Shown in pieces: positions 1,711 to 21,326 of a DNA stretch of 27,430 bases. Position 1 is the first letter of the stretch; each line of letters starts with the position of its first letter. The translations under genes were made by a program, and so were the position numbers. Source of the DNA: Vulcanimicrobiota bacterium (GTDB lineage Bacteria; Vulcanimicrobiota; Vulcanimicrobiia; Vulcanimicrobiales; Vulcanimicrobiaceae); assembly GCA_003135555.1 (NCBI GenBank), contig PLCF01000058.1, forward strand, positions 1 to 27,430, given 5' to 3'. The notes beneath the pieces were generated by a model, which saw only the letters and a list, made by a program, of their open reading frames with translations, did no database searches and was not told the DNA's origin.

Positions 1711-3434
1711 TGCTCGATTAGGATCTCCGGCAATTCAAATGTTCTCCCAAAAACATTCGATGCTAGTGTCGCGACGTGTTGAAAGCGAACTTTATACTGA
1801 TCCAAACTTTTTGTCGTTACGCTTACTGACGACCTAAAATCGTTGCTCAACGAATAGAGGGCGATAAAGCCGTTACGGAAGGACTCCTCCTTGCCCCGAA
1901 GCTCCTTGTCCGACACTTGCCGGATGTACCATATTTGTGTCTCGAATATCGCACGATTAAAGCGACGATCAAATGTGCCTTTAGGCATCGGTCGGCGCCC
2001 GACCGAAGTCGCTCCGCCAAATATCGCGATGAGTCGCCTTATAGCGCTCTCGAAAGATTCATGTGCAAGTTCCAGCTTGTTACGATATCGGCGCCAATCG
2101 GCGTTGAATTTATTTGTCACTTCATCAAGGAAACCACGCAAGTTCCCTCGGTATAGTTCAAAGTGTAACACTTGAGCGAAGTATCGCAGCATAATTTCTG
2201 AATCGCGATATCGCGGGTCTGGACCTGAAAGGCCAAGAACGTCGTGAATTTGGGTTTTTTTACTGGTGAGGCGGTCCAAAAACGTTGTAAATTCGCCGCG
2301 GTACAAAGATTGGCGGAGTTCCTGTGGACTAAGGCTCACTGATCCGGAATTCAGACGATAGAATACGTAATATAGGTACTCGTAAGATATGGAACTTCGG
2401 CTCGATATTACGGCGCAGCGGACATCAGCATTCATCAATTCGCGATGTGCGGAACGATACTTTGGATTGTTTGCTAATTCTGCAAACGAGACGCCATCTA
2501 GGTCTGGAAGAATATTTAGACCGGACAGCCGATGCTTTTGCCAATACGGTACTGTAGTATCAATGTATCCCCAGAGTGTCATCAGGCGTTGTCGACCATC
2601 GATGACAATAAACGACCGTTTCTCGTCGGGTTTTTCCGCAAAAACGAGTTGAGGAACCGGAATGCCGGCTATGAGGCTTTCGATGAGGCCGCTTCGCTTG
2701 TCATCGGTCCACGCATTCCGCCGCTGGAATTCCGGATCGAGCTTAATATTGCCGGACGTAATCTGGTCGATCACTGTCGCGACAGTCCAATCGCGCGAAT
2801 AAACAACGAGGTCGCGATAGTCTGGCGGCGTTTGGAAGTCGGCGAGAGTCTCGTCGGGATCTTCGTAAAGACCAACGGTATCAGACTCAATCTCGGCGGT
2901 CAGCTCTTCCACGTTAGTTTCACTGGGGCACAAGAGACTGATTAGTGCTGCGCTAACGCCCTGTACCGAAAGTTCGTCTATCGAATAGTTCCGTGGTTCC
3001 ATCCACTCGGCTCGATCGCTGAGCCGGTTGCCGTCTGCGATCGGGCCGCCCGGCGGAATTGATGGGACGAGTTGTGCCGTATCCTTGCTCAGAACCCGTA
3101 GGACGCCGCCGTGTGCGCCGCGCCTGAGTGACCAAGTTCGCTCGCTTGTTTCTGTAATGTCAACTTCGCATGTCTCGAGAACGCGAGTTGCAATTTCGGC
3201 GAACCATTGGTAAATGTCCAATCGCTGATTCCCCCGGGAGAGGCGCTGACGCGGCGACTCTCGATTCTCCTGCTGTTTGCTAAGGGTGGTTGATTGGGGG
3301 TGGTCCGGCGGTTGCTTTGCGAATGCCTGCCGCGGTTGAAAGGCTGGAGCTAGAATGACGCAATAATCATCCCGCGTATTTCGGCCGGGGACGGCATTTC
3401 CTAGACCTAGTTTGGTGTTCGCCGCCGCCGGCAA
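1707..3434 (-). CDS. DUF262 (GmrSD N-terminal, ParB/Srx-like) domain protein; true start probably downstream (ATG near 3003 or GTG 2912)
   Basis: Motifs PEFQRRNAW, LIESLIAGIPVP, VIDGRQRL and FYRLNSGSVSLSPQELR. The first ~140 codons look less protein-like. Confidence 0.88.
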   Translation of the reverse strand: MPAAANTKLGLGNAVPGRNTRDDYCVILAPAFQPRQAFAKQPPDHPQSTTLSKQQENRESPRQRLSRGNQRLDIYQWFAEIATRVLETCEVDITETSERTWSLRRGAHGGVLRVLSKDTAQLVPSIPPGGPIADGNRLSDRAEWMEPRNYSIDELSVQGVSAALISLLCPSETNVEELTAEIESDTVGLYEDPDETLADFQTPPDYRDLVVYSRDWTVATVIDQITSGNIKLDPEFQRRNAWTDDKRSGLIESLIAGIPVPQLVFAEKPDEKRSFIVIDGRQRLMTLWGYIDTTVPYWQKHRLSGLNILPDLDGVSFAELANNPKYRSAHRELMNADVRCAVISSRSSISYEYLYYVFYRLNSGSVSLSPQELRQSLYRGEFTTFLDRLTSKKTQIHDVLGLSGPDPRYRDSEIMLRYFAQVLHFELYRGNLRGFLDEVTNKFNADWRRYRNKLELAHESFESAIRRLIAIFGGATSVGRRPMPKGTFDRRFNRAIFETQIWYIRQVSDKELRGKEESFRNGFIALYSLSNDFRSSVSVTTKSLDQYKVRFQHVATLASNVFGRTFELPEILIEQ

Positions 3435-14195: not shown

Positions 14196-15872
14196 GTGAT
14201 CGCACGACGCGCATACGGGATCGTCCGCGCGGCCTCGCTGTTCGCGGCGCTGGCTGCGGTAAGCGCGTATGCCCCGGCGGCGCTCCACGCCCTCAAGCCC
14301 CAGGACGCCGTGTTTCTCGCCGGCGCCCTGGCGGCCGCGATCGCGCTCGGCATCCTGCGCGCGCCCGCCGCGCATTTCGAACGCAGCCTGCGCCCGACGC
14401 CCGAAAGCGATCGGGTCGGCCTCATCGTGCCGGTCCTGCTCGCGGTGCTGGTGACCGAAGGTTGGCTGTGGGCGGCGGTATGCAACGTCGCGGCCTACCT
14501 CGTGCGCCGGCGCGGCCTACGCCGTCGCCCGTTGCAAGACCGGATCCTCACCGCGGCGCTGCGCTTCCCGGCCTGGTGGGCGGCGGCGCTGCTGCTCGAG
14601 CCGCTGCGGCGTGCCGCGCAGGCAACGCCGTCGGCGGCGTCGCTCGCAACGTTCGTCGGCCTGGCTGCCGCCTTCGTCCTGCTCGTCGATCTGGTGTGGA
14701 TCGATTCGCTCGCGGCGGCGCGCCAGAGCCGGTCGCTGCTGATGCTGTGGCGGCGTCACGCGGCGGACCGCGGGACGCTGCTCATCGTGCTGGCCGAATG
14801 TACCTGGGCGTACGTCATCGTGCGCGTCGCCACCCACGACGGCTCGGCGTTGGGCGTTGCGACGCTGCTGCCGCTCGTCGGCCTGGCCGTCGTCCTGGGG
14901 CGCTTCGCGCGAGTGAACGCGCGGCTGCATCGTCTGGCGATCTCGCGCGAGGCCGTCGACGCGATGCTGCGCGCGAACGATCCCATGCCGCAGATGCGCT
15001 CGCTGCTCGAGAGCATCGACCCGCACATCGTGCGCGAGGCCGTCGAGATCGCCGCCTTCGGACGCGGCGGGACCGAGCGCTGGTCGCGCGTGGTGCGTTT
15101 CGGTCCGGCGGTCACCCCGGAGTTGGAACGGCTGGGCGGGCGGGCGCTCTTGGAACTGCAAGTCACCGGCGAGGACGCGGCGATCGAGCAGCGCGAGGAC
15201 GGCAGCGTGTGGGCGTACCGGGCGCGCGATGCGGGAGAACGGCTGCGCGGCGCGCTCCTGGTATTCCGTGCGCCCGGAGCGCTGCCGTTCGTGGCGGCGC
15301 GCGACTTCGAGCGCGCCGCGTCCGAGCTGGGGCCGCTGTTGGGTGACTACGGCGCGATCGCTGCGACGCGCACGGCGGCGACGATCGATACGCTCACCGG
15401 CTTGGCGAACCGCCGCGGGCTGCAGCGCGCCTTCGAGGAAGCGATGGCGCACGTGCGCGGCGGCGGTGGCTACGCGGTCTTGCTGCTCGACGTCGATCAT
15501 TTCAAGTCGATCAACGACTTGCTCGGGCACCAGACCGGCGATCGCGCGTTGGCGCAGATCGGGCGACTCATCTCCGACAACATCCGGGGCCTGGATCTCG
15601 CCGGACGTTTCGGCGGCGAGGAATTCCTGGTGCTGCTGCGCGATGCGGCGCGCGAGCGCGCGCTGCAAGTCGCCGAGCGTTTGCGCGCCGCCATCGAGGC
15701 GGGCGGGCTCGCATACGCCGACGGCAAGCCCGTCACCGTCTCGGTCGGGGTCGCCTACGCCGTCGCCGCCGACACCACGGCGGACGTGGTCGAACGGGCC
15801 GACCGGGCGCTGTACCGGGCCAAGAACGCGGGCCGGAACCGGGTCGTCGAATCCCCCGTCGAAACCGTGTAA
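14196..15872 (+). CDS. Membrane-bound diguanylate cyclase (GGDEF domain)
   Basis: DTLTGLANRR, LLDVDHFKSINDLLGHQTGD, RGLD I-site, GRFGGEEF and ALYRAKNAGRN; multiple N-terminal TM helices. Confidence 0.92.
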   Translation: MIARRAYGIVRAASLFAALAAVSAYAPAALHALKPQDAVFLAGALAAAIALGILRAPAAHFERSLRPTPESDRVGLIVPVLLAVLVTEGWLWAAVCNVAAYLVRRRGLRRRPLQDRILTAALRFPAWWAAALLLEPLRRAAQATPSAASLATFVGLAAAFVLLVDLVWIDSLAAARQSRSLLMLWRRHAADRGTLLIVLAECTWAYVIVRVATHDGSALGVATLLPLVGLAVVLGRFARVNARLHRLAISREAVDAMLRANDPMPQMRSLLESIDPHIVREAVEIAAFGRGGTERWSRVVRFGPAVTPELERLGGRALLELQVTGEDAAIEQREDGSVWAYRARDAGERLRGALLVFRAPGALPFVAARDFERAASELGPLLGDYGAIAATRTAATIDTLTGLANRRGLQRAFEEAMAHVRGGGGYAVLLLDVDHFKSINDLLGHQTGDRALAQIGRLISDNIRGLDLAGRFGGEEFLVLLRDAARERALQVAERLRAAIEAGGLAYADGKPVTVSVGVAYAVAADTTADVVERADRALYRAKNAGRNRVVESPVETV

Positions 15873-15896
15873 CCGGAGCTGCGTGGCTGCGGCCGG

Positions 15897-16088
15897 CTAT
15901 TCGCGCTCGACCCGCTCTACGAGGGCGTCGCCCGAGCCGTCGATGCGAACCGAGAAGACGAGCGGCCGGCAGCACAGCGGGCAGTCCTCGACGAGGGTCT
16001 GGCGGCGCCCGGCCGTCGGATCCACGCCCAGGGCGTTCTCCTCGCCGCAGCTCGGACAGGCGTAGGAGGCATCCGTTTCGAGCGGCAT
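15897..16088 (-). CDS. CPXCG-motif cysteine-rich protein
   Basis: YACPSCGE...EDCPLCCRP in a 63-aa ORF. Confidence 0.85.
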   Translation of the reverse strand: MPLETDASYACPSCGEENALGVDPTAGRRQTLVEDCPLCCRPLVFSVRIDGSGDALVERVERE

Positions 16089-16154
16089 CAGCCGGGAGGA
16101 GGGTCCTGCAGGATCACGCCGCGGGTAGTGGTCCCTTTTGAATCGGCCACCCCC

Positions 16155-16184
16155 TTGACATACGGGACGGTAGACGCCGACCCT
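16155..16184 (+). promoter_or_regulatory. Putative promoter for the small basic protein
   Basis: Perfect TTGACA at 16155 and a weak -10 (GACCCT, 18-bp spacer) 6 nt before GTG 16191. Confidence 0.4.
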
Positions 16185-16190
16185 TGAGGG

Positions 16191-16424
16191 GTGCCGAAGA
16201 AGCCACCCTCCGATCCGAGCCAAGCCGCCCGGTCGATCCTGGACCAAATCACGGGCGAGAAGCCCAAGGTCATGCCGACCCAGAAGAACGGCGCGGCCGT
16301 GGAGCTAGGGCGCAAGGGTGGCGAGGCACGCCGGGACGCGCTCTCGGCCGAGGAGCGGTCCCGGATCGCCAAAGAGGCCGCCCGGAAGCGGTGGGGCGAC
16401 CCGGCCGACGAGGGTGTAGAATAA
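16191..16424 (+). CDS. Small basic protein of the GRKGG...KRW type, recurrent in IS1/IS1595-like cargo elements
   Basis: KNGAAVELGRKGGEARRDALSAEERSRIAKEAARKRW; family recognised from recall. Confidence 0.8.
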   Translation: MPKKPPSDPSQAARSILDQITGEKPKVMPTQKNGAAVELGRKGGEARRDALSAEERSRIAKEAARKRWGDPADEGVE

Positions 16425-16429
16425 AGTGT

Positions 16430-16525
16430 CAGAGACGGTGGGATTCGGACCCACGGGGGCGCCCCTGAAAAGCCTCCCCGCCCGGACCTAACGCCGGGTG
16501 CCTTAAACCGCTCGGCCACGTCTCC
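16430..16525 (-). ncRNA. Irregular tRNA-like gene with a Ser-like body, long variable arm and 8-nt anticodon loop
   Basis: GGAGACG-TG-GCCGAGCGGTTTAAGGC-A-CCCGG-CGTTAGGT-CCGGG-(26-nt V arm)-GTGGG-TCCGAAT-CCCAC-CGTCTCT-G-ACA. Confidence 0.8.
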
Positions 16526-16528
16526 CCG

Positions 16529-16563
16529 ACAAAGCGCCGAGGCCTTACGCCTCGGCGCTTTGT
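16529..16563. terminator. Perfect 15-bp hairpin between the ImmA gene and the tRNA-like gene
   Basis: ACAAAGCGCCGAGGC-CTTAC-GCCTCGGCGCTTTGT. Confidence 0.6.
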
Positions 16564-16564
16564 A

Positions 16565-17761
16565 TTATGCGCGCCGCCTCCACGGCTCAGGCTGATCATC
16601 GCGCGGATAGATACCGAAGGGATCGTCGTTGTGATTAGCATCTAATTCCTTCGGGTCGAGCGCGCAGAAGCGCGCGAAGTCCGACGGCAACAGGCCAACC
16701 TCCTCAGACAATGCCAACAGGTTCTCGGGATGCGCGTCGCGCAGCGTAACGATCGCCGTCGCGAGAAGGCGCGGATGCTCCATTGGTATTTGCTCGTCTA
16801 ACGGCTCGCTCGTTCCCCAGCCACGACGGTTGCGATTCATCCAGAATCGCTTGTATGTCGCGTCGTCGATCATCCCCAAGTCCTTCGCGCGCGTCATCAT
16901 GGTCGCGACCGAGAGGTACCAATGCGTCTTCGCAAGCAGCAAGTTGTCGAGTGTTACCGGGCTGACTGATCGACGAAAGGTGCCTTCGGGCATGAGGAAC
17001 GCGCGAGCGAATCGGAACGCTTGCGTCTCAATCAAACCGTGCGTCTTGGGATTCACCTCAAGGTACCGGCGGTCGATGTTTCGATGGAGTACTAGATGAC
17101 CCAATTCGTGCGCTACGTCGGTCCGCCGGTGCGACGCGCTGACCTCGCGACAGCCAATAGCAATGATTGGTCGGCCGTTATGCGCCCAAATTGAAAAGCC
17201 GTCCACCGTAGGCGATTCGATGACATTCGGGACGACCACGCAGCCGTGGCCTTCCACCAGTCGAATGACGTCGCGCACGACGCCATTGCTCATTCCCCAA
17301 GCGCGGCGTAACTCCGTAGCAGCTACGTCGATCAACTCGTCGCTGATTTGCTGCGGATCGCTCGGCGGCTTGAAATCGGGCACGGTGACGTCGGGCAAAA
17401 CGACGTACTGCTCAAGCGCGACGATGAAATCGCGGACCCATGCCAGCTGCCGCTCAACGGCACGAAGATGCTTTGGCGTCGTTTTCGAGCGAAATTGCCG
17501 AAAAAACACGGCGGCCGGCTCGGGTGGCGCTTCCGGCCGCATGAAGAATCCAATCGGCACGTTCAACGCTGCTGCGAAACGCGCGACCGCGCTTGGAGTA
17601 GCGCGAATCTCCCCCTCCTGGTACCGATAAACTAACTGCCGATTGGTCCCAAGCCGATCAGCAAGGTCCTTTAAGGACAGTCCGCGCGCCTCGCGCGCTT
17701 CTTTCAAGCGCGCGAGCGGGTGATCGGGCGCGCGCGCAAGGACCTCGGGGCGGTCGTTCAT
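16565..17761 (-). CDS. XRE HTH plus ImmA/IrrE (peptidase M78) zinc metallopeptidase
   Basis: N-terminal RLKEAREARGLSLKDLADRLG...YRYQEG, then RRTDVAHELGH (HExxH) and ETQAFRFARAFLMP. Confidence 0.92.
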   Translation of the reverse strand: MNDRPEVLARAPDHPLARLKEAREARGLSLKDLADRLGTNRQLVYRYQEGEIRATPSAVARFAAALNVPIGFFMRPEAPPEPAAVFFRQFRSKTTPKHLRAVERQLAWVRDFIVALEQYVVLPDVTVPDFKPPSDPQQISDELIDVAATELRRAWGMSNGVVRDVIRLVEGHGCVVVPNVIESPTVDGFSIWAHNGRPIIAIGCREVSASHRRTDVAHELGHLVLHRNIDRRYLEVNPKTHGLIETQAFRFARAFLMPEGTFRRSVSPVTLDNLLLAKTHWYLSVATMMTRAKDLGMIDDATYKRFWMNRNRRGWGTSEPLDEQIPMEHPRLLATAIVTLRDAHPENLLALSEEVGLLPSDFARFCALDPKELDANHNDDPFGIYPRDDQPEPWRRRA

Positions 17762-18393
17762 CCGAGCTTCGGTTTGCGCTGGGCGCGGATTTGCTTGCCC
17801 TTGCGGAGCGGCGTGACGTTGGGTGAGGCGGCGGGCTCGACCGGCGCGTCCGTTGCGCTCGCTTTCAAAAGCTCCAATAGATCAAGACGCTGGTCGGGCA
17901 CCCAAAAGCCATCCGGGTGCAACAAGCGCAGGTACATGAACGCGACGATCGCCGGGTTCTTTCTAAACCCGTAACAGATCGTGCCCCATAGCCTCACGTT
18001 TTGGTCGAACAACGATAGTTCGGTCGGTCGCGTTTGCGTAATCTGATGCAGCTGCGGTGTTGCGAAGCGATACTCAACTTTGTTCACCGCAAGCCGTGCA
18101 TCGGGCGTAACCAACGCGGTGTAGTACGTCGAGCCGCCTTCGTGCCGGCGAGACGTGACGCTTAAAATTGGTACGATGTTGCGGATCGTCGCTTGGCGTT
18201 GAAGCGCCGCGTGAATGTCGTAGTACTTGTTAATGCCGACGACGTGCGGCCGCATCTCTTCGGGATATTGGTTAAAGCGTTGCACGACGGGCGGGCAAGC
18301 GTCCACGATAGTGCGAGCAACCTCGCGAAGCGCGGATAACGGAAATACGCCGATGAAATCCTCGATCGTCGGGCCTGGTTTGGGAGGGGCCAC
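17758..18393 (-). CDS. Hypothetical protein translationally coupled to XRE-ImmA; candidate toxin or effector
   Basis: GAAAGGA RBS before the GTG, ATGA overlap with the downstream gene, 211 aa. Confidence 0.75.
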   Translation of the reverse strand: MAPPKPGPTIEDFIGVFPLSALREVARTIVDACPPVVQRFNQYPEEMRPHVVGINKYYDIHAALQRQATIRNIVPILSVTSRRHEGGSTYYTALVTPDARLAVNKVEYRFATPQLHQITQTRPTELSLFDQNVRLWGTICYGFRKNPAIVAFMYLRLLHPDGFWVPDQRLDLLELLKASATDAPVEPAASPNVTPLRKGKQIRAQRKPKLG

Positions 18394-18514
18394 CCTGGGG
18401 CCGTCCTTTCAGCGGAAAAATGTCACGCTGTAACGTTGTCATCCTTATCGCACATTCTGGCATTTTTTGTCAACCTCGCCCTACGGCGGGGGCTAGTTTT
18501 GTCACCGTATCCCC

Positions 18515-18543
18515 TTGTAAACTGCTTGGCGCTATGCAATAAT
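18515..18543 (+). promoter_or_regulatory. Putative transposase promoter
   Basis: TTGTAA-17 bp-AATAAT, 6 nt before ATG 18550. A divergent TTGACA lies on the minus strand at 18468-18473. Confidence 0.5.
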
Positions 18544-18549
18544 GGGAGT

Positions 18550-19407
18550 ATGAACCGTCTCCCCCTCGCCGACCGCGTTCGCATCCTGGGCGCCCTGGTC
18601 GAAGGCAACAGCGTTCGGGGAACCGCCCGGATCGTCGGGGTGGACAAGAAGACCGTCCTGCGCCTCTTGGCGGACGTCGGGGACGCCTGCGACGTCTACT
18701 TGGATCAGAATGTCCGCGGCCTCAAGAGCGAGCGGATTCAGTGTGACGAAATTTGGTCGTACTGCCACGCCAAGCAGCGCAACCTCCCGCGCGAATTGCG
18801 CGGAAACGATGGCGTCGGCGACCTGTGGACGTGGACGGCTATCGACGCCGACACAAAGCTGATCGTGGGATGGCACCTCGGCAAGCGAACGCACCAGGAC
18901 GCGAGCCTTTTCATTCGCGACCTCTCGCAGCGCGTCGTTTCGGAGCGCGTTCAAATATCAACCGACGGCCTCTCGTTCTACAACGGTCCGATTAAGCTGC
19001 ATTTCTTCCACCGTGCCGACCACGGCTCAGAGGTGAAAGACTACGGGCTGTTAGACGAGGATTCACCGGAGCGCAAGTATAGCCCGATGGTCGTGAAGCG
19101 CGTTCACCGGACGATACAGTACGGCGTTCCCGACCCGGACCATATTTCGACCGCCTACGTCGAGCGAAACAATCTCACGATGAGAATGTCCATGCGGCGG
19201 TTCACGCGGCTAACGAACGGCTTCTCGAAGAAGGCCGAGAACCTACGGCGCGCGCTCGCGCTCAATTTTGCTTTCTACAACCTTTGCCGCAAGCACCAGA
19301 CAATCAAGACCACGCCGGCGATCGCCGCGGGCCTCACGAACCGCATTTGGACGCTGCACGACCTTGCAAAACTGCCTGATGTCCTGAGCGATTCGCTAGC
19401 GGCCTAG
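18550..19407 (+). CDS. IS1-family DDE transposase, single ORF with N-terminal HTH
   Basis: LVEGNSVRGTARIVGV (HTH), IQCDEIWSY, WTWTAIDADTKL, ISTDGL and VERNNLTMRMSMRRFTRLTNGFSKK. Confidence 0.92.
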   Translation: MNRLPLADRVRILGALVEGNSVRGTARIVGVDKKTVLRLLADVGDACDVYLDQNVRGLKSERIQCDEIWSYCHAKQRNLPRELRGNDGVGDLWTWTAIDADTKLIVGWHLGKRTHQDASLFIRDLSQRVVSERVQISTDGLSFYNGPIKLHFFHRADHGSEVKDYGLLDEDSPERKYSPMVVKRVHRTIQYGVPDPDHISTAYVERNNLTMRMSMRRFTRLTNGFSKKAENLRRALALNFAFYNLCRKHQTIKTTPAIAAGLTNRIWTLHDLAKLPDVLSDSLAA

Positions 19408-19511
19408 TTGCGGGGAGCATGCGCCGAGAAACGGCGGTCCCATTCAGAGGGAGTCCACGCGCTTAGGCATAAGTCACGACCCCCATCTCTCCAGCAAAGC
19501 CGGGGGGCGCT

Positions 19512-20312
19512 ATGGAGTGGTTTGAGGCTGTCGAGAAGGTTGCGCCTTACGTCGTAAAAATAGAAACGCCGCGCGGCCACGGTACCGGCTTCTTATGTCT
19601 GTACAACGAGCCGCGCAACCTTTGCGGGATTGCAACAGCGTATCACGTCGTAGAGCATGCGGACGATTGGCAAGAACCAATTCGGCTCGTCCACAAGGGC
19701 ACCGCGAAAGCCCTGTTTTTGAGCGAGGGCCAACGTGTTATTTTTATGGACGAGGGTAACGATTCAGCCGTTATTCTTTTCCCGTCCGGCCAACTTGATT
19801 TGCCAAAGGAGCTGATACCGCTGATTCCAGCCGGTCGTTCGGCCAAGGTCGGCGTCGAGGTCGGTTGGCTCGGATATCCGGCCGTCACGCCTCAAAACCT
19901 CTGCTTTTTTGCTGGTGCTATTAGTGCGAGTACGAAGGACGCCTACTTCATTGACGGTGTCGCCATAAACGGCGTCAGCGGCGGCCCGGTTTTCCAACCG
20001 ATCGGCGACGAAATCTATATCCTGGGCACGATTTCCGCCTACTATCCGAACGTTCGCGGGATGGGCGACACGCTGCCCGGCCTGTCGTTTGCTCAAGGTG
20101 TTGCTCACTTTCACGAAACGATCGCTAAGGTTAAGTCATTGGACGAAGCGCGGAAAACGCAAAAACAGCCCGTACCAGCGCTTTCCCCGCCGGAGCCTAA
20201 GCGCGCCGGGTCGCCTCGTGCTGCACCGAAGGCCAAGAAAACTGCCAAGAAAACTACCAAGAAAAAAACTGCCAAGAAAACTGCGAAGCCCTCCCGCAAG
20301 CGTCCTCGGTAA
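19512..20312 (+). CDS. Trypsin-like serine protease, no signal peptide, Lys-rich C-terminal tail
   Basis: GTGF, TAYHVV (His), NDSAV (Asp), GVSGGPVF (Ser); tail KKTAKKTTKKKTAKKTAK. Confidence 0.88.
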   Translation: MEWFEAVEKVAPYVVKIETPRGHGTGFLCLYNEPRNLCGIATAYHVVEHADDWQEPIRLVHKGTAKALFLSEGQRVIFMDEGNDSAVILFPSGQLDLPKELIPLIPAGRSAKVGVEVGWLGYPAVTPQNLCFFAGAISASTKDAYFIDGVAINGVSGGPVFQPIGDEIYILGTISAYYPNVRGMGDTLPGLSFAQGVAHFHETIAKVKSLDEARKTQKQPVPALSPPEPKRAGSPRAAPKAKKTAKKTTKKKTAKKTAKPSRKRPR

Positions 20313-20671
20313 CAATCGGCGGCCCCGATGCGCCGCGCGGATTACCTCCGATGACTGGTACGTTACCATGCTCCGCTCCCGGTCCGGTAGGGGCTGCGGA
20401 CGTGTGGACGCGGTTTGCCTGCCATGCCGTGCGGTGCCGAGGCCTGGCGAGCCAAGCCACGCCGTGCTCGCCTTATACCCCGCTAGGCCGAGGGGCGGCG
20501 ACGCGGGCTTAGGCGCCGAGCCGGGGGCTGAAAGCGCGCCGCCGCCCCTGTCCAGGATAGAGCCCTCGATTCCTGGCGGCTAGTCACGTCGGACGGGGCT
20601 TTGCAGGTCGCAACGCCCTAGCGAGCGCTTGGCCCCTGAAAAGGGACCAGTACCCACGCCGCGTCCTTCGG

Positions 20672-20700
20672 TTTACAGACCCCCGGGCCTGTGCTACACT
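20672..20700 (+). promoter_or_regulatory. Sigma70-type promoter of the rpmG-secE-nusG cluster
   Basis: TTTACA-17 bp-TACACT with an extended -10 TG. Confidence 0.65.
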
Positions 20701-20767
20701 TTCGACTCGGAACGGACCGCGCGTCCGTTTTCTTCATGTTTTCCGGCACCTCGGCGAGAACACCACG

Positions 20768-20932
20768 ATGGCGAAAAAAGAAACCCGGGTGATGGTTACG
20801 ATGGCGTGCACCGAGTGCAAGCGGCGTAACTACAACACCTTCAAGAACAAGCAGAAGACCAGCGAGCGGCTCGAGCTGAGCAAGTACTGCCGCTTCTGCC
20901 GGTGCCACAAGCCTCACCGGGAAACCAAATAG
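20768..20932 (+). CDS. rpmG: 50S ribosomal protein L33, zinc-binding type
   Basis: [54 protein letters not shown]; synteny with secE-nusG. Confidence 0.96.
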
Positions 20933-20955
20933 CGAGCCCGCTTGCCGGGCCCCAG

Positions 20956-21031
20956 AGGGCGGTGGCGCAATTGGTAGCGCAGCGGTCTCCAAAACCGCGG
21001 GTTGCAGGTTCGAGTCCTGTCCGCCCTGCCA
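20956..21031 (+). tRNA. tRNA-Trp(CCA)
   Basis: AGGGCGG/CCGCCCT acceptor, loop CTCCAAA, TTCGAGT T loop, encoded CCA; 76 nt. Confidence 0.96.
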
Positions 21032-21053
21032 ACTCTCCGCGGTACAAGGTACA

Positions 21054-21326
21054 ATGAAGTCCAACCCAAGCCGTCCCCAAGGGAGCCGCCCGGTGGCGAA
21101 TCGTCCTGCGACCCCCGCGCAACGCGCCGCGAACGCTCAGCGGACACGGGAATTCGTGCGTGGTGTCGCGACCGAGATGCGCCGCGTCACCTGGCCCACG
21201 CGCGAGGAGTGGATCGCGGCGACCTTGCTCACCATCGCGCTGGTCGTTGCGGTCGGTTTGTTCACCTCGGCGTGCGACTGGATCTTCGCCTACTTGTTCA
21301 CCTGGCTCACCGGAGGGGCGCGCTGA
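21054..21326 (+). CDS. secE: Preprotein translocase subunit SecE
   Basis: EMRRVTWPTREE motif plus TM helix; located before nusG. Confidence 0.93.
   Translation: MKSNPSRPQGSRPVANRPATPAQRAANAQRTREFVRGVATEMRRVTWPTREEWIAATLLTIALVVAVGLFTSACDWIFAYLFTWLTGGAR

Follow-up and report, generated by a model that had tools for sequence, protein, structure and literature searches.

The window analysed here (the whole 27,430-nucleotide stretch) contains a 4,531-bp element that is very probably an intact, recent 'transporter' IS, with an IS1-nearest transposase, a backbone carrying Rosmer-type and protease cargo, movement as a whole unit and targeting associated with -35 hexamers. Four parts make up the backbone: the inverted ends of 16 bp each, a small basic ORF close behind the left one, a tRNA of type II (in this host lineage) and the transposase, encoded by one ORF with HTH and DDE domains. 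The cargo occupies two slots. The first reaches from the tRNA to the transposase and holds a Rosmer-type operon in which a 211-aa toxin candidate is translationally coupled to an HTH-M78 RmrA protein; the second follows the transposase and holds a protease of the trypsin type along with 0.3 kb of further DNA. The features, with positions in the window, are as follows.

15897-16091, minus strand: left host gene, small Cys-rich CPXCG protein (Pfam Cys_rich_CPXG, E 2.2e-16; ORF list)
16115-16123: left target-site duplication, 9 bp, CACGCCGCG (sequence; the 9 joint letters fit either side)
16124-20654: whole element, 4,531 bp (inverted ends and flanking duplication read from the sequence)
16124-16139, plus strand: left terminal inverted repeat GGTAGTGGTCCCTTTT (sequence)
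16191-16424, plus strand: small basic backbone ORF, 77 aa, GTG start, three predicted helices (tblastn across the family)
16430-16525, minus strand: type-II tRNA, serine-like body, anticodon-loop core UAGG (anticodon UAG, Leu) (ARAGORN, Rfam)
16531-16561: GC-rich hairpin between the RmrA gene stop and the tRNA, likely terminator (sequence; inverted self-match 16529-16563)
16565-17761, minus strand: RmrA-like antitoxin/regulator, 398 aa, XRE-type HTH and M78 (ImmA/IrrE) zinc peptidase (PADLOC, Pfam)
17758-18393, minus strand: 211-aa toxin candidate in the RmrT position (gene position; 4-nt overlap, ATGA, of its stop with the RmrA start)
18515-18543, plus strand: putative promoter-like site TTGTAA-17-AATAAT with TG extension, 5' of the transposase start (consensus scan only)
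18550-19407, plus strand: transposase, 285 aa, single ORF, N-terminal HTH and DDE domain (D66, D139, E205) (NCBIfam, Pfam)
19512-20312, plus strand: trypsin-like serine protease (H45, D84, S165 in GVSGGP), Lys-rich C-terminal tail (Pfam Trypsin_2, 28.5 bits)
20313-20638: GC-rich right arm of the element, GC about 0.70, no convincing ORF
20639-20654, minus strand: right terminal inverted repeat, reverse complement GGTACTGGTCCCTTTT (sequence)
20655-20663: right target-site duplication copy, 9 bp, CACGCCGCG (sequence; empty-site joint)
20672-20700, plus strand: putative host promoter-like site TTTACA-17-TACACT for rpmG and downstream tRNA-Trp, secE and nusG (consensus scan)
20768-20932, plus strand: right host gene rpmG, ribosomal protein L33 (Pfam Ribosomal_L33, 1.5e-19)
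20956-21031: host tRNA-Trp, after rpmG (ARAGORN)

Element boundaries and empty site

Direct reading of the sequence confirmed the original observation of an IS1-type element with inverted ends that agree at 15 of 16 letters (GGTAGTGGTCCCTTTT and GGTACTGGTCCCTTTT) and a perfect 9-bp duplication. A script that searched for GG-starting inverted ends (at least 15/16) placed 0.7-8 kb apart, with a perfect 9-bp flanking repeat, returned a single pair in the window, compared with none in any of 20 mononucleotide shuffles, in agreement with the GGT-type ends and duplication of the initial annotation. The GGTAGTGGTCCCTTTT 16-mer recurs unchanged at both ends of a sibling element (G002), and the family consensus of the inverted ends is GGTAGTGggTCAGTTTGAA. 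The element is present as one copy in the 98-contig MAG (84% complete) and contains genes on both sides of the uninterrupted transposase ORF. The start codon of the CPXCG gene is 32 nt from the element, so the native upstream region of this gene has been displaced. In the right arm there was no tRNA or Rfam match, and a search of 43 congeners revealed no relative of it.

Contigs from three other peat metagenome runs (X2, X5 and X6, the last two from other studies) joined position 16114 directly to 20655, skipping 4,540 bp (4,531 + 9) and keeping one CACGCCGCG. This joint skips exactly the element and one repeat, indicating that an exact empty site exists. The X5/X6 joint had 80 letters on its shorter side, with contig mismatches at 5 of 595 aligned letters, and the X2 joint had just 21. 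Run X2 also contained the occupied form, in contigs covering 16094-20684 with 0 differences, while run X7 contained the right junction of the element. All of this evidence comes from contigs after assembly and not from the raw reads, and the contig depths of 6.5-8.9 for the occupied form and about 30 for the empty form are not readable as shares of cells. The presence of both forms in one run indicates that the insertion is recent and polymorphic. The flanks were found by BLAST 9-16 nt apart in three congeners (G009, G015 and G017); in silico removal of the element and one repeat left a 16-nt spacer between conserved flank motifs, compared with 17-20 nt in these congeners.

The initial annotation had proposed a recent single transposition of a unit mobile as a whole and had suggested a search for the empty site; the exact joint, with one CACGCCGCG, in near-identical strains from three other runs upholds these proposals. 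The 4.5-kb element is probably intact and recently inserted, and transposition may be ongoing. The DDE transposase would bind the GGTAGTGG... ends and make a staggered 9-bp cut in the target (8 bp in most relatives), and the 4.5-kb unit would move together as a whole.

Family anatomy and backbone

The genome set contained 61 bounded loci out of 80, with GGTAGTG-type ends, a length of 2,285-4,779 bp and a left arm of at least 986 bp. A metagenome set that did not overlap with it gave 35 bounded loci out of 80, of 2,083-4,653 bp, likewise with these ends and with duplications of 8-9 bp. The duplications of the 61 genome loci were 8 bp in 56 cases (two of them 7/8) and 9 bp in four, with none in the remaining locus. 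All 96 bounded elements contained at least 1.2 kb of non-transposase DNA. Homologues with inverted repeats tight around the transposase, which the initial annotation had named as evidence against its reading, numbered 0 of the 61 plus 35 bounded relatives, and the reading is therefore not refuted by them.

The stretches common to the element and its siblings were only element positions 1-405 and 2399-3284. The GC3 of the small ORF was 0.85 and that of the transposase 0.80, with values of 0.61-0.71 for the cargo. The small ORF was detected by tblastn (E<1e-3) in 35 of 63 bounded elements, nearly always on the plus strand about 70-320 nt from the left end, and in 16 of the 35 elements of the second (metagenome) set. 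Its alignment (A3) contained the invariant residues G43, G44, R47, R56, R67 and W68, its model had an AF2 pLDDT of 76, and no Pfam or PDB sequence match was obtained. The tRNA region gave an Rfam tRNA score of 40.8 bits in a narrow search, compared with 44-55 bits for its siblings, and a contig of run X2 carried an identical sequence (0 differences). A cloverleaf over the tRNA copies was 97.7% paired, with compensatory changes at 9 of 26 pairs (0/500 shuffles). The five copies and their compensatory changes mark it as a real if odd tRNA that is part of the backbone in this host lineage. The small basic protein and the tRNA-like part had both been assigned to the cargo at first, but the former is a backbone gene conserved across the family and the latter is backbone in this lineage; of the tRNA-like RNA(s) proposed, one tRNA gene proved real and no second one was found in the element, nor any in the right arm.

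Pfam analysis covered 123 cargo ORFs from relatives that were 120 aa or longer, delimited crudely by taking the longest frame. Roughly half had no match, and those matched included P63C (eight), HTH+M78 (seven), SDH/ClpP-like protease (six), Panacea, STAND/AAA and methylases or restriction-modification (three each), Fic, NYN, PIN, HigB-like+HTH and Trypsin_2 (two each), and YhaV, RelA_SpoT and RhuM (one each). The element is a member of a widespread family hauling toxin-antitoxin or defence-type cargo, mostly such genes where the cargo is nameable.

Cargo proteins

Sequence homology suggests that the true cargo is a Rosmer-type pair, consisting of the 211-aa toxin candidate and a full-length RmrA, together with the trypsin-like protease. 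Rosmer systems are described as varied toxins paired with an HTH-ImmA protease antitoxin (PMC10440598; 10.1101/2022.05.11.491447). The 398-aa protein matched PADLOC RmrA over residues 17-379 of 398 (E 4.6e-91) and the Pfam families Peptidase_M78 (8e-17) and HTH_3/HTH_31, while the NCBIfam spr1629 antitoxin model gave 173 bits, below the cut-off of 335. A HELGH motif is present, and H218, E219 and H222 are invariant in eight element-borne RmrA homologues. A search of 1.84 billion representatives returned 13 relatives of the 211-aa protein at E<=1e-3; the protein had no Pfam or NCBIfam match and no sequence link to any known toxin or named RmrT. Its AF2 model (pLDDT 82) gave only weak restriction-endonuclease-like fold matches (Z<=5.6), and the ESM Atlas gave a weak similarity (TM 0.58) to the DUF5986 and 'spr1630 family ClpXP-sensitive toxin' clusters. 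The trypsin-like protease was 43% identical, with the triad conserved, to a cargo protein of an element from an unrelated host (L028), and gave weak PADLOC matches to LmuA and RT-Protease. The full-length match to RmrA lends weight to the addiction or anti-phage module that had been proposed. By analogy with its homologues the cargo may stabilise the element through addiction, with the 211-aa protein as the toxin, and/or abort phage infection upon inactivation of RmrA.

Target choice

Target choice in the family was non-random, insertions being placed with a TTGAC(A) -35 hexamer 15 nt downstream of one end, a distance made up of the duplication and 7 further nt. This constant spacing ahead of -35 hexamers is a new observation. 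TTGACA was matched at 5/6 or better at duplication+7 in 29 of 126 flanks, one flank in each of 29 of the 63 elements (beyond the right end in 16 and beyond the left end in 13), and no other offset exceeded 4 matches. The pattern was replicated in 12 of the 35 metagenome elements, with a peak of 11 flanks at offset 15 and at most 3 elsewhere. The -35 hexamer of the rpmG promoter-like site begins 17 nt from the end of the present element, which is the family's preferred target geometry. Landing 15 nt 5' of a -35 hexamer, by some mode of -35 recognition, would leave the promoter core intact, in this case that of rpmG.

Alternative explanations

Profile searches place the transposase probably nearest to IS1, in line with the initial annotation, and the residues D66, D139 and E205 were invariant in 56/56 transposases. 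It is unlikely that the element falls outside IS1, as a separate undescribed IS family or an IS1595 or IS6 relative sharing only the DDE fold and GG ends. The NCBIfam transpos_IS1 score of 59.9 bits is under the curated cut-off of 100, the IS6 and IS1595 models were also matched by 43/45 and 19/45 members, and the one-ORF transposase, the additional conserved small ORF and the ever-present passengers are atypical of IS1; however, transpos_IS1 was the top-scoring model for 45/45 members (best E 1.5e-21), the Pfam DDE_Tnp_IS1 score of 25.6 bits exceeds the gathering cut-off of 24.1, 45%-identical plasmid homologues are labelled 'IS1 family transposase' in RefSeq by PGAP, and ends of the form GGnnnTG with 8-9 bp target duplications are IS1 traits according to ISfinder. 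The TTGAC pattern could tentatively be ascribed to a simple DNA-sequence preference of the transposase, unrelated to promoters, as TTGAC is missing from the expected position in about half of the bounded elements, and a recognisable -10 from 17 of the 29 TTGACA matches. TTGAC is also nearly invariant in the matches (28-29 of 29), and the element's own ends hold a related (C/G)TGAC/GGAC motif. Against this, a -10-like hexamer at 16-18 nt spacing was found in 12 of the 29 matching flanks (41%) compared with 5 of 72 control flanks (7%), eight insertions precede a tRNA gene by 59-91 nt and the present one is at the rpmG promoter.

The tRNA combines the body of a serine tRNA with the UAG anticodon loop of a leucine tRNA, a new observation. 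It is possible, if somewhat doubtful, that it is an ordinary tRNA-Leu(UAG) supplying a codon rare in the GC-rich host and commoner in the lower-GC genes of the element, as phage tRNAs do. CUA accounts for 8 of 112 Leu codons in the element genes compared with 458 of 31,931 in a rough host sample, 510 long ORFs chosen beforehand for GC3>0.8; ARAGORN assigned Leu(tag) with normal 7-nt loops to four sibling copies, the G006 loop TTTAGGT, which has G37, is identical in the chromosomal tRNA-Leu(UAG) of a congener, and the G051 copy has an A discriminator. The acceptor stem (GGAGAG/GGAGAC), D-arm and T-arm, however, resemble host tRNA-Ser, the discriminator is G in 4/5 copies but A in all five host Leu isoacceptors, and covariance models built from the host gave 64.7-79.9 bits for Ser compared with 38.1-50.7 bits for Leu (64.7 and 38.1 for the copy here). 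A tRNA-Leu(UAG) is already encoded in the complete congener genome, U33 is present in only 2/5 copies, and the anticodon loop of the copy here is one base longer than normal, at 8 nt, suggesting that this tRNA may be impaired. For the HTH-M78 protein and its partner, a function as the element's own ImmR/ImmA-like stress switch on the divergent transposase, rather than in defence or as a toxin-antitoxin, is improbable. ImmA/ImmR govern the induction of the mobile element ICEBs1 (PMC10440598), and the operon and transposase share a 156-bp divergent control region containing the transposase promoter-like site at 18515-18543; yet an HTH+M78 gene was found in only 7/61 relatives and so is not a family-wide regulator, the RmrA profiles are matched over the full length, and the coupled upstream partner is of a variable family exactly as in Rosmer.

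Comparison with known systems

The pair resembles RosmerTA (RmrT/RmrA), including RipAB (spr1630/spr1629) of Streptococcus pneumoniae, in its full-length RmrA-type HTH and M78 peptidase and in the coupled upstream partner of no known family, whose predicted fold is nearest (TM 0.58, ESM Atlas) to spr1630-type toxin clusters. Unlike RosmerTA, it sits inside an IS, and its toxin candidate has no sequence similarity to named RmrT. Natural mistranslating or identity-switched tRNAs include Candida tRNA-Ser(CAG), SerRS being described as not reading the anticodon (PMC11415595), and bacterial tRNAProX/ProA (PMC10404621). The element tRNA shares with the Candida tRNA a serine-type body and leucine anticodon, but differs from all of these in being borne by a transposable element, in lacking a conserved U33 and in the 8-nt loop of this copy.

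The IS1 family includes single-ORF forms and larger 'ISMhu11'-type members (ISfinder). The element is like IS1 in its best profile, an IS1 DDE transposase with N-terminal HTH, its GGT-starting ends (GGnnnTG) and 8-9 bp duplications. Unlike classical IS1 it has a single 285-aa ORF with no insA/insB' frameshift, and it further departs from IS1 in a transposase under the curated NCBIfam cut-off, the additional small ORF conserved near the left end, the family-wide non-transposase DNA and the constant spacing between insertions and -35 hexamers. Transporter IS (tIS) with passenger genes are exemplified by the IS1595-family ISNwi1/ISNha5 groups (Siguier and Chandler's reviews). The element similarly is IS-sized, with a DDE transposase and inverted ends enclosing genes unrelated to transposition in one moving unit; unlike in tIS, a passenger load in two defined slots is the rule for the whole family, and the nameable passengers are mostly toxin-antitoxin or defence-type genes.

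Tn7 targets attTn7, and the eukaryotic Ty3/TRE5-A insert upstream of tRNA genes. The IS1202 family inserts next to dif sites (PMC10132070). Like these elements, the present family inserts with a constant spacing to a functional signal in the DNA and spares essential genes. No targeting protein is known for the family, unlike Tn7 with TnsD, and it differs from all three in that both element orientations occur and that the -35 hexamers serving as its signal, of the sigma-70 type, belong to many different promoters.

Element boundaries and insertion site

The element at positions 16124–20654 of the window (4,531 bp) has inverted ends matching at 15 of 16 positions and is flanked by a perfect 9-bp repeat, which confirmed both features as described in the initial annotation. 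A script requiring inverted ends of at least 15/16, a perfect 9-bp flanking repeat and a spacing of 0.7–8 kb recovered one such GG-starting pair in the window, compared with none in 20 shuffles. The element is present as a single copy in its metagenome-assembled genome (MAG; 98 contigs, 84% complete), of which the window is one whole contig.

Features of the element, in window coordinates
16115–16123 and 20655–20663: target duplication CACGCCGCG, directly abutting both element ends
16124–16139: left terminal inverted repeat GGTAGTGGTCCCTTTT, read in the sequence
16191–16424, + strand: small basic ORF, 77 aa, no Pfam family
16430–16525, − strand: type-II tRNA
16531–16561: hairpin
16565–17761, − strand: RmrA-like protein, 398 aa, XRE HTH and M78 peptidase (HELGH)
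17758–18393, − strand: 211-aa ORF
18550–19407, + strand: transposase, 285 aa
19512–20312, + strand: trypsin-like protease, His45/Asp84/Ser165, Lys-rich tail
20313–20638: right arm, GC-rich DNA, no recognisable feature
20639–20654: right terminal inverted repeat, reverse complement GGTACTGGTCCCTTTT, 15/16 match to the left end

The right arm (20313–20638) gave no tRNA, no Rfam match and no relatives in the searches made. An integrase-mediated island at a tRNA gene was considered and rejected, as an integrase is absent and the repeat is not derived from the tRNA. On the left flank the start codon of the CPXCG gene lies just 32 nt from the element (window 16091–16124), so that the native upstream region of this gene is now displaced by 4.5 kb, and transcription leaving the element may now serve it.

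The unoccupied locus was sought in 40 relatives using a 6.4-kb query spanning the site. In three congeners (G009, G015 and G017) the CPXCG-gene and rpmG flanks are 9–16 nt apart and the spacing from the GGTCCTGC motif to the CTTCGGTTTACA motif is 17–20 nt; in the window, without the element and one of its two repeat copies, this spacing is 16 nt. In an unpublished genome within the same search (G036) the flank genes were the sole match. The CPXCG–rpmG interval measures 0.4–1.5 kb in five further genomes (G012, G011, G020, G022 and G018) against about 20 nt, and these long intervals contain other DNA with no match to the element.

Eight public peat or soil runs contained part of the stretch, and the contigs of four were compared with positions 15600–21100. 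Contigs of three of the four contained a joint from 16114 to 20655 which skips 4,540 bp, equal to the element (4,531) plus one repeat (9), the nine letters fitting either side. In runs X5 and X6, from two separate studies, contigs of 706 and 724 nt contain the joint with 80 letters on the shorter side, and these contigs differ from the window at five of 595 aligned letters; in run X2 the shorter side is just 21 letters. The occupied form was also present in X2, as three contigs covering 16094–20684 with no differences, and the right junction (20568–20718) was found without differences in run X7. The junctions were observed in assembled contigs rather than raw reads, and their depths of 6.5–8.9 for the occupied and about 30 for the empty form do not represent cell shares. 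The empty site with one copy of CACGCCGCG, proposed at the outset as a check, thus exists exactly in near-identical strains, and the joint and the occupied contigs place both alleles in one sample (X2). The insertion is real and recent, and the interpretation given in the initial annotation is supported, with the corrections described below. As expected of a transporter IS (tIS), the joint skips the whole element with one repeat and the cargo varies among siblings with the same ends. A passenger-carrying IS has here been caught mid-event, with occupied and empty alleles together in one peat population; to our knowledge such coexisting alleles have seldom been documented for uncultured phyla. 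In runs X2 and X7 the depth of contigs spikes at window positions 17808–17991 and 19280–19463, loose ends occur at 17935 and 19308, and short pieces of the cargo and transposase are common to other, more abundant sequences in these samples.

Anatomy of the family

A scan of one genome per species identified at least 546 relatives of the transposase, of which the best 80 loci were kept. Inverted ends of the GGTAGTG type were located by script in 61 of these 80 (the best 80 of at least 546); the remaining 19 were unbounded, many of them lying at contig ends. Among the 61 bounded loci the target duplication was 8 bp in 56 (two of these matching at 7/8) and 9 bp in four, with none in one. The bounded genome elements were 2,285–4,779 bp long (median 3,176 bp with the window counted), with 986–3,476 bp between left end and transposase and a right arm of 2–1,838 bp. 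A non-overlapping set drawn from metagenome contigs gave 35 bounded loci out of 80, of 2,083–4,653 bp, and no element was 95% or more identical between the two sets. Inverted repeats closing tightly around the transposase ORF, named beforehand as an observation that would speak against a cargo-carrying unit, occurred in none of the 61 bounded genome loci.

The small ORF was found in 35 of 63 elements (E<1e-3), approximately 70–320 nt inside the left end, and in 16 of the 35 metagenome elements. Because it recurs near the left end across the family, the small basic protein, initially counted as cargo, is instead a backbone gene. It has no Pfam family and no sequence match in the PDB, a VIA search gave a best Z of 3.1, and in the ESM Atlas it matched just automatic 'histone H1 family' or hypothetical clusters. 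Its C-terminal motif, GRxGGxxRAxxLSxExRxxIAxxAAxxRW at residues 42–72, is also present at the N-terminus of cargo proteins with P63C or RhuM domains in three related elements (L031, L093 and L094).

Comparison with siblings from the same host family (G002, G006, G046/L021, L022 and G051) showed that only element positions 1–405, comprising the left end, small ORF and tRNA, and 2399–3284, comprising the transposase and about 30–150 nt upstream, are shared. The tRNA, also listed as cargo in the initial annotation, falls within the shared left block and is backbone in this host lineage. By this comparison the remainder of the element is cargo, held in two slots, and GC3 agrees with the division, being 0.85 and 0.80 in the backbone genes against 0.61–0.71 in the cargo. 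The sibling in G002 is 3,275 bp long, with identical 16-nt ends, a 9-bp duplication GACGGCCTC and other cargo. Matches to any part of the element at E<=1e-8 were obtained in 10 of 43 other genomes of the host genus; these were to the transposase or its fragments, with the left module in four genomes (G002, G006, G009 and G051), and G018 carries a 65%-identical RmrA gene at another place. The protease and right arm had no match among the 43 genomes. In the G051 sibling (L112, 233–253 versus 1190–1400) the left end is separated from the small-ORF/tRNA block by approximately 940 bp, compared with about 60 bp in the window element, which suggests a third place for extra DNA. At one locus (L058) a second GGTAGTGGGTCAGTTTGAG end starts 18 nt past the first element end in the right flank, where another family member appears to adjoin directly.

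Cargo genes

Pfam searches covered 123 ORFs from the relatives, all of them other than the transposase and 120 aa or longer, selected by a crude longest-ORF rule, and about half had no match.

Pfam matches among cargo ORFs of related elements
P63C: 8 ORFs
HTH with Peptidase_M78: 7 ORFs
SDH/ClpP-like protease: 6 ORFs
SocA/Panacea: 3 ORFs
STAND/AAA_16: 3 ORFs
DNA methylase or restriction-modification fusion: 3 ORFs
Trypsin_2: 2 ORFs
Fic: 2 ORFs
NYN: 2 ORFs
PIN: 2 ORFs
Gp49 (HigB-like) with HTH: 2 pairs
One each: AAA_21, YhaV, RelA_SpoT, dCTP-deaminase-like, RhuM, Bro-N, Rap1a, DUF4760, nested IS5-type transposase

The IS5-type transposase (DDE_Tnp_1 with DUF772; L054, 5497–6459) lies within one family member and probably represents a nested insertion, not cargo. 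A cargo protein of element L028, from an unrelated host, has 43% identity to the window protease.

The RmrA-like protein matched the PADLOC RmrA model along its full length (E 4.6e-91, residues 17–379), with H218, E219 and H222 of the HELGH motif invariant; against the NCBIfam spr1629 repressor/antitoxin model it scored 173 bits, under the cut-off of 335. In the Rosmer-type pairs described by Ernits et al. (PMC10440598), varied RmrT toxins are paired with an ImmA-protease antitoxin that often has an N-terminal HTH. The 211-aa ORF is located where RmrT is expected, its TGA stop overlapping the RmrA start by 4 nt (ATGA). The upstream partners of RmrA-like genes in four elements (211, 223, 222 and 219 aa) are mutually unrelated, and in this they resemble the family-variable RmrT of RosmerTA.

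The 211-aa protein is rare, with 13 matches at E<=1e-3 in 1.84 billion representatives and one by word search. It has no sequence match to any known toxin, and Pfam and NCBIfam searches were empty even at E values of 10 and 1. Its ESM Atlas model gave a TM score of 0.58 both to a DUF5986 cluster and to a 'spr1630 family ClpXP-sensitive toxin' cluster, the latter a lead only; spr1630/spr1629 (RipAB) is described in a preprint as a Rosmer-family pair, with DnaN as the proposed toxin target. The AF2 model was good (pLDDT 82). Foldseek gave no match to it at E<=1e-3 in the PDB or BFVD, and a wide VIA search returned CidB ND1-ND2 (Z 5.6, the best), NaeI (5.4) and other restriction-endonuclease-like folds. 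Assignment as a nuclease was not accepted, since these Z values of at most 5.6 are at the level of a common arrangement and no conserved D/E-x-K was present in the alignment (A2).

The element tRNA

The window tRNA scored 40.8 bits against Rfam RF00005 (cut-off 29) in a narrow search of 161 nt, and was missed by the default Rfam filters on the whole window. Sibling copies (G002, G006, L022 and G051) have 7-nt loops with the anticodon UAG, and the three scanned against Rfam gave 44–55 bits. Across the five copies, which represent five species, 97.7% of the cloverleaf cells are paired and 9 of 26 pairs are changed on both sides; none of 500 shuffles reached these values, and slid controls gave at most two such pairs. 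The tRNA-like RNA or RNAs first proposed thus include a real tRNA, with a cloverleaf over the Rfam cut-off; only this one was found, with none in the right arm. ARAGORN calls in other elements (Pro, Gly, Thr, 'Stop' and a second Leu(tag) in L041) were left out of the tRNA counts.

Scores (bits) on covariance models built on host tRNAs
Element copies: host-Ser model 64.7–79.9; host-Leu model 38.1–50.7
Host Leu tRNAs: host-Ser model 38–60
Host Ser tRNAs: host-Leu model 39–56
Host Tyr tRNA: host-Ser model 74.2; host-Leu model 52.4

The acceptor stem GGAGAG/GGAGAC is that of six of seven aligned host tRNA-Ser and the D-arm is of the Ser type. The body contains what we take to be the serine identity set: G1:C72, G2:C71, A3:U70, C11:G24, a long variable arm and G73. 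Leucine identity requires discriminator A73 together with a Leu-type body. In a complete congener genome, which has its own tRNA-Leu(UAG), all five Leu isoacceptors carry A73 and a different body, whereas the element discriminator is G in four of five copies and A in that of G051. The core of the anticodon loop, UAGG, is invariant, and the G006 loop is identical to that of the host Leu(UAG). The window copy has an 8-nt anticodon loop, CGTTAGGT, confirmed in a contig of run X2, and position 33 in the four 7-nt copies is U, U, G and C, a departure from the canonical 7-nt loop with U33.

Since SerRS is described as not reading the anticodon (review PMC11415595) and the body is Ser-like, charging with serine is predicted under the identity rules assumed here. 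That the tRNA of this IS lineage would accept serine and read the leucine codon CUA, perhaps CUG, and so act as a mobile device for mistranslation or recoding that spreads horizontally, is an improbable reading of these sequences. On that reading a costly activity would be tuned or silenced by the variation at position 33 and by the 8-nt loop of the window. A true leucine tRNA serving codon supply would be favoured by the greater frequency of CUA in the genes of the element, at 8 of 112 Leu codons compared with 458 of 31,931 in a crude GC3-selected host set, but G73 in four of five copies and the higher host-Ser scores (64.7–79.9 against 38.1–50.7 bits) argue against it; at 74.2 bits for the host Tyr tRNA, the Ser model is itself not fully specific. 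Read as a serine acceptor or otherwise, an IS-borne tRNA that combines Ser and Leu features prompts one to ask if altered decoding is spread by mobile elements, and a Ser-bodied tRNA with a Leu anticodon in one IS lineage goes beyond the descriptions that we could find.

Elsewhere in the MAG, contig C83 (48930–49591) contains a cluster of tRNAs within 0.7 kb (Ser gct, Leu cag, Leu caa and Leu gag) that repeats isoacceptors present elsewhere in the MAG and scores poorly on the host models. ARAGORN also called tRNA-Pyl(cta) and tRNA-SeC. Outside the element, this 84%-complete MAG yielded neither tRNA-Leu(tag) nor tRNA-Leu(taa).

Target sites

In eight elements among all loci, the 5' end of a tRNA gene (ARAGORN) follows 59–91 nt downstream of the element, and in these eight and the window a TTGAC(A)-type hexamer begins 15–17 nt from the element end. 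Outward reading of 126 flanks from 63 bounded elements at position duplication+7 gave TTGACA at 5/6 or better in 29 flanks of 29 elements, 14 of them perfect, with 16 on the right-end side and 13 on the left. By absolute offset, 27 matches fell at offset 15 and at most four at every other offset from 0 to 49. A −10-like hexamer followed 16–18 nt on in 12 of the 29, compared with 5 of 72 control flanks (those with at most 2/6 TTGACA matches at duplication+7). The same test, stated in advance, gave 12 of 35 elements in the metagenome set, and offset 15 again held the peak, with 11 flanks compared with at most three at other offsets. These flanks point to sigma-70-type promoters being targeted, with insertion upstream of the −35 hexamer at a fixed spacing.

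In the window TTTACA-17-TACACT (20672–20700) begins after a gap of 8 nt from the duplication and is the sole promoter-like site upstream of rpmG. As the −35 lies 8 nt beyond the duplication, the element would occupy the UP-element position of the rpmG promoter and leave the core intact. In two different species, elements L015 (3206–3342, G002) and L021 (9183–9320, G046) lie 60–61 nt upstream of tRNA-Met with the right end facing the tRNA. They have different cargo and different, though perfect, duplications (GACGGCCTC and GATCGAGAC), and look like independent insertions at the same promoter.

The literature search gave no description of IS insertion registered to −35/TTGACA, the main IS reviews being outside its reach. 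If real, such targeting would be a bacterial counterpart to the eukaryotic elements that seek promoters and tRNA genes, and would offer a 'safe-harbour' mechanism open to testing, with possible use in genome engineering.

Relation to IS1 and other mobile elements

The best match of the transposase was NCBIfam transpos_IS1 at 59.9 bits, under the curated cut-off of 100, while Pfam DDE_Tnp_IS1 gave 25.6 bits, just over its gathering score of 24.1. The transpos_IS1 model was the best for all 45 family members scanned (best E 1.5e-21), which also matched IS6 (43), IS481 (23) and IS1595 (19) models. All 56 aligned transposases retain D66, D139 and E205, which were assigned as the triad by position and motif (DEIW, TDG and YVER) rather than by structure. 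In RefSeq, full-length plasmid-borne homologues from cultured bacteria, approximately 45% identical, are named 'IS1 family transposase'. The IS1-family assignment of the initial annotation is upheld by the nearest profile, the Pfam score and these homologues, with the NCBIfam cut-off missed.

IS1 elements in ISfinder have inverted ends starting GG(T), of the form GGnnnTG, and target duplications of 8–9 bp. The GGTAGTG ends of the family and its duplications, which measure 8 bp in 56 of 62 elements and 9 bp in another 5, agree with these traits. Classical IS1 has overlapping frames, insA and insB', joined by a −1 frameshift, whereas the transposase of the element is encoded by one unbroken 285-aa ORF that includes an N-terminal HTH of its own. 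Lack of the frameshift does not exclude IS1, since single-ORF subgroups exist. Nothing relevant on IS1/tIS passenger or defence cargo was found in the literature searched, with most subscription-journal IS reviews and supplements outside its reach, and 'ISMhu11' was not found there.

The family is very widespread and always loaded, with at least 546 genome and at least 599 metagenome relatives in many phyla, and toxin-antitoxin and defence-type genes abound in its two exchangeable slots. The pattern suggests that immune genes are shuffled between bacteria by a small, simple vehicle, one smaller than islands, phages or Tn7-like elements, on which attention usually falls. The obligatory two-slot passenger load beside a conserved small ORF goes beyond the published accounts that we could find; the element itself is an IS1-like transporter IS with a Rosmer-type module, both of which are known kinds.
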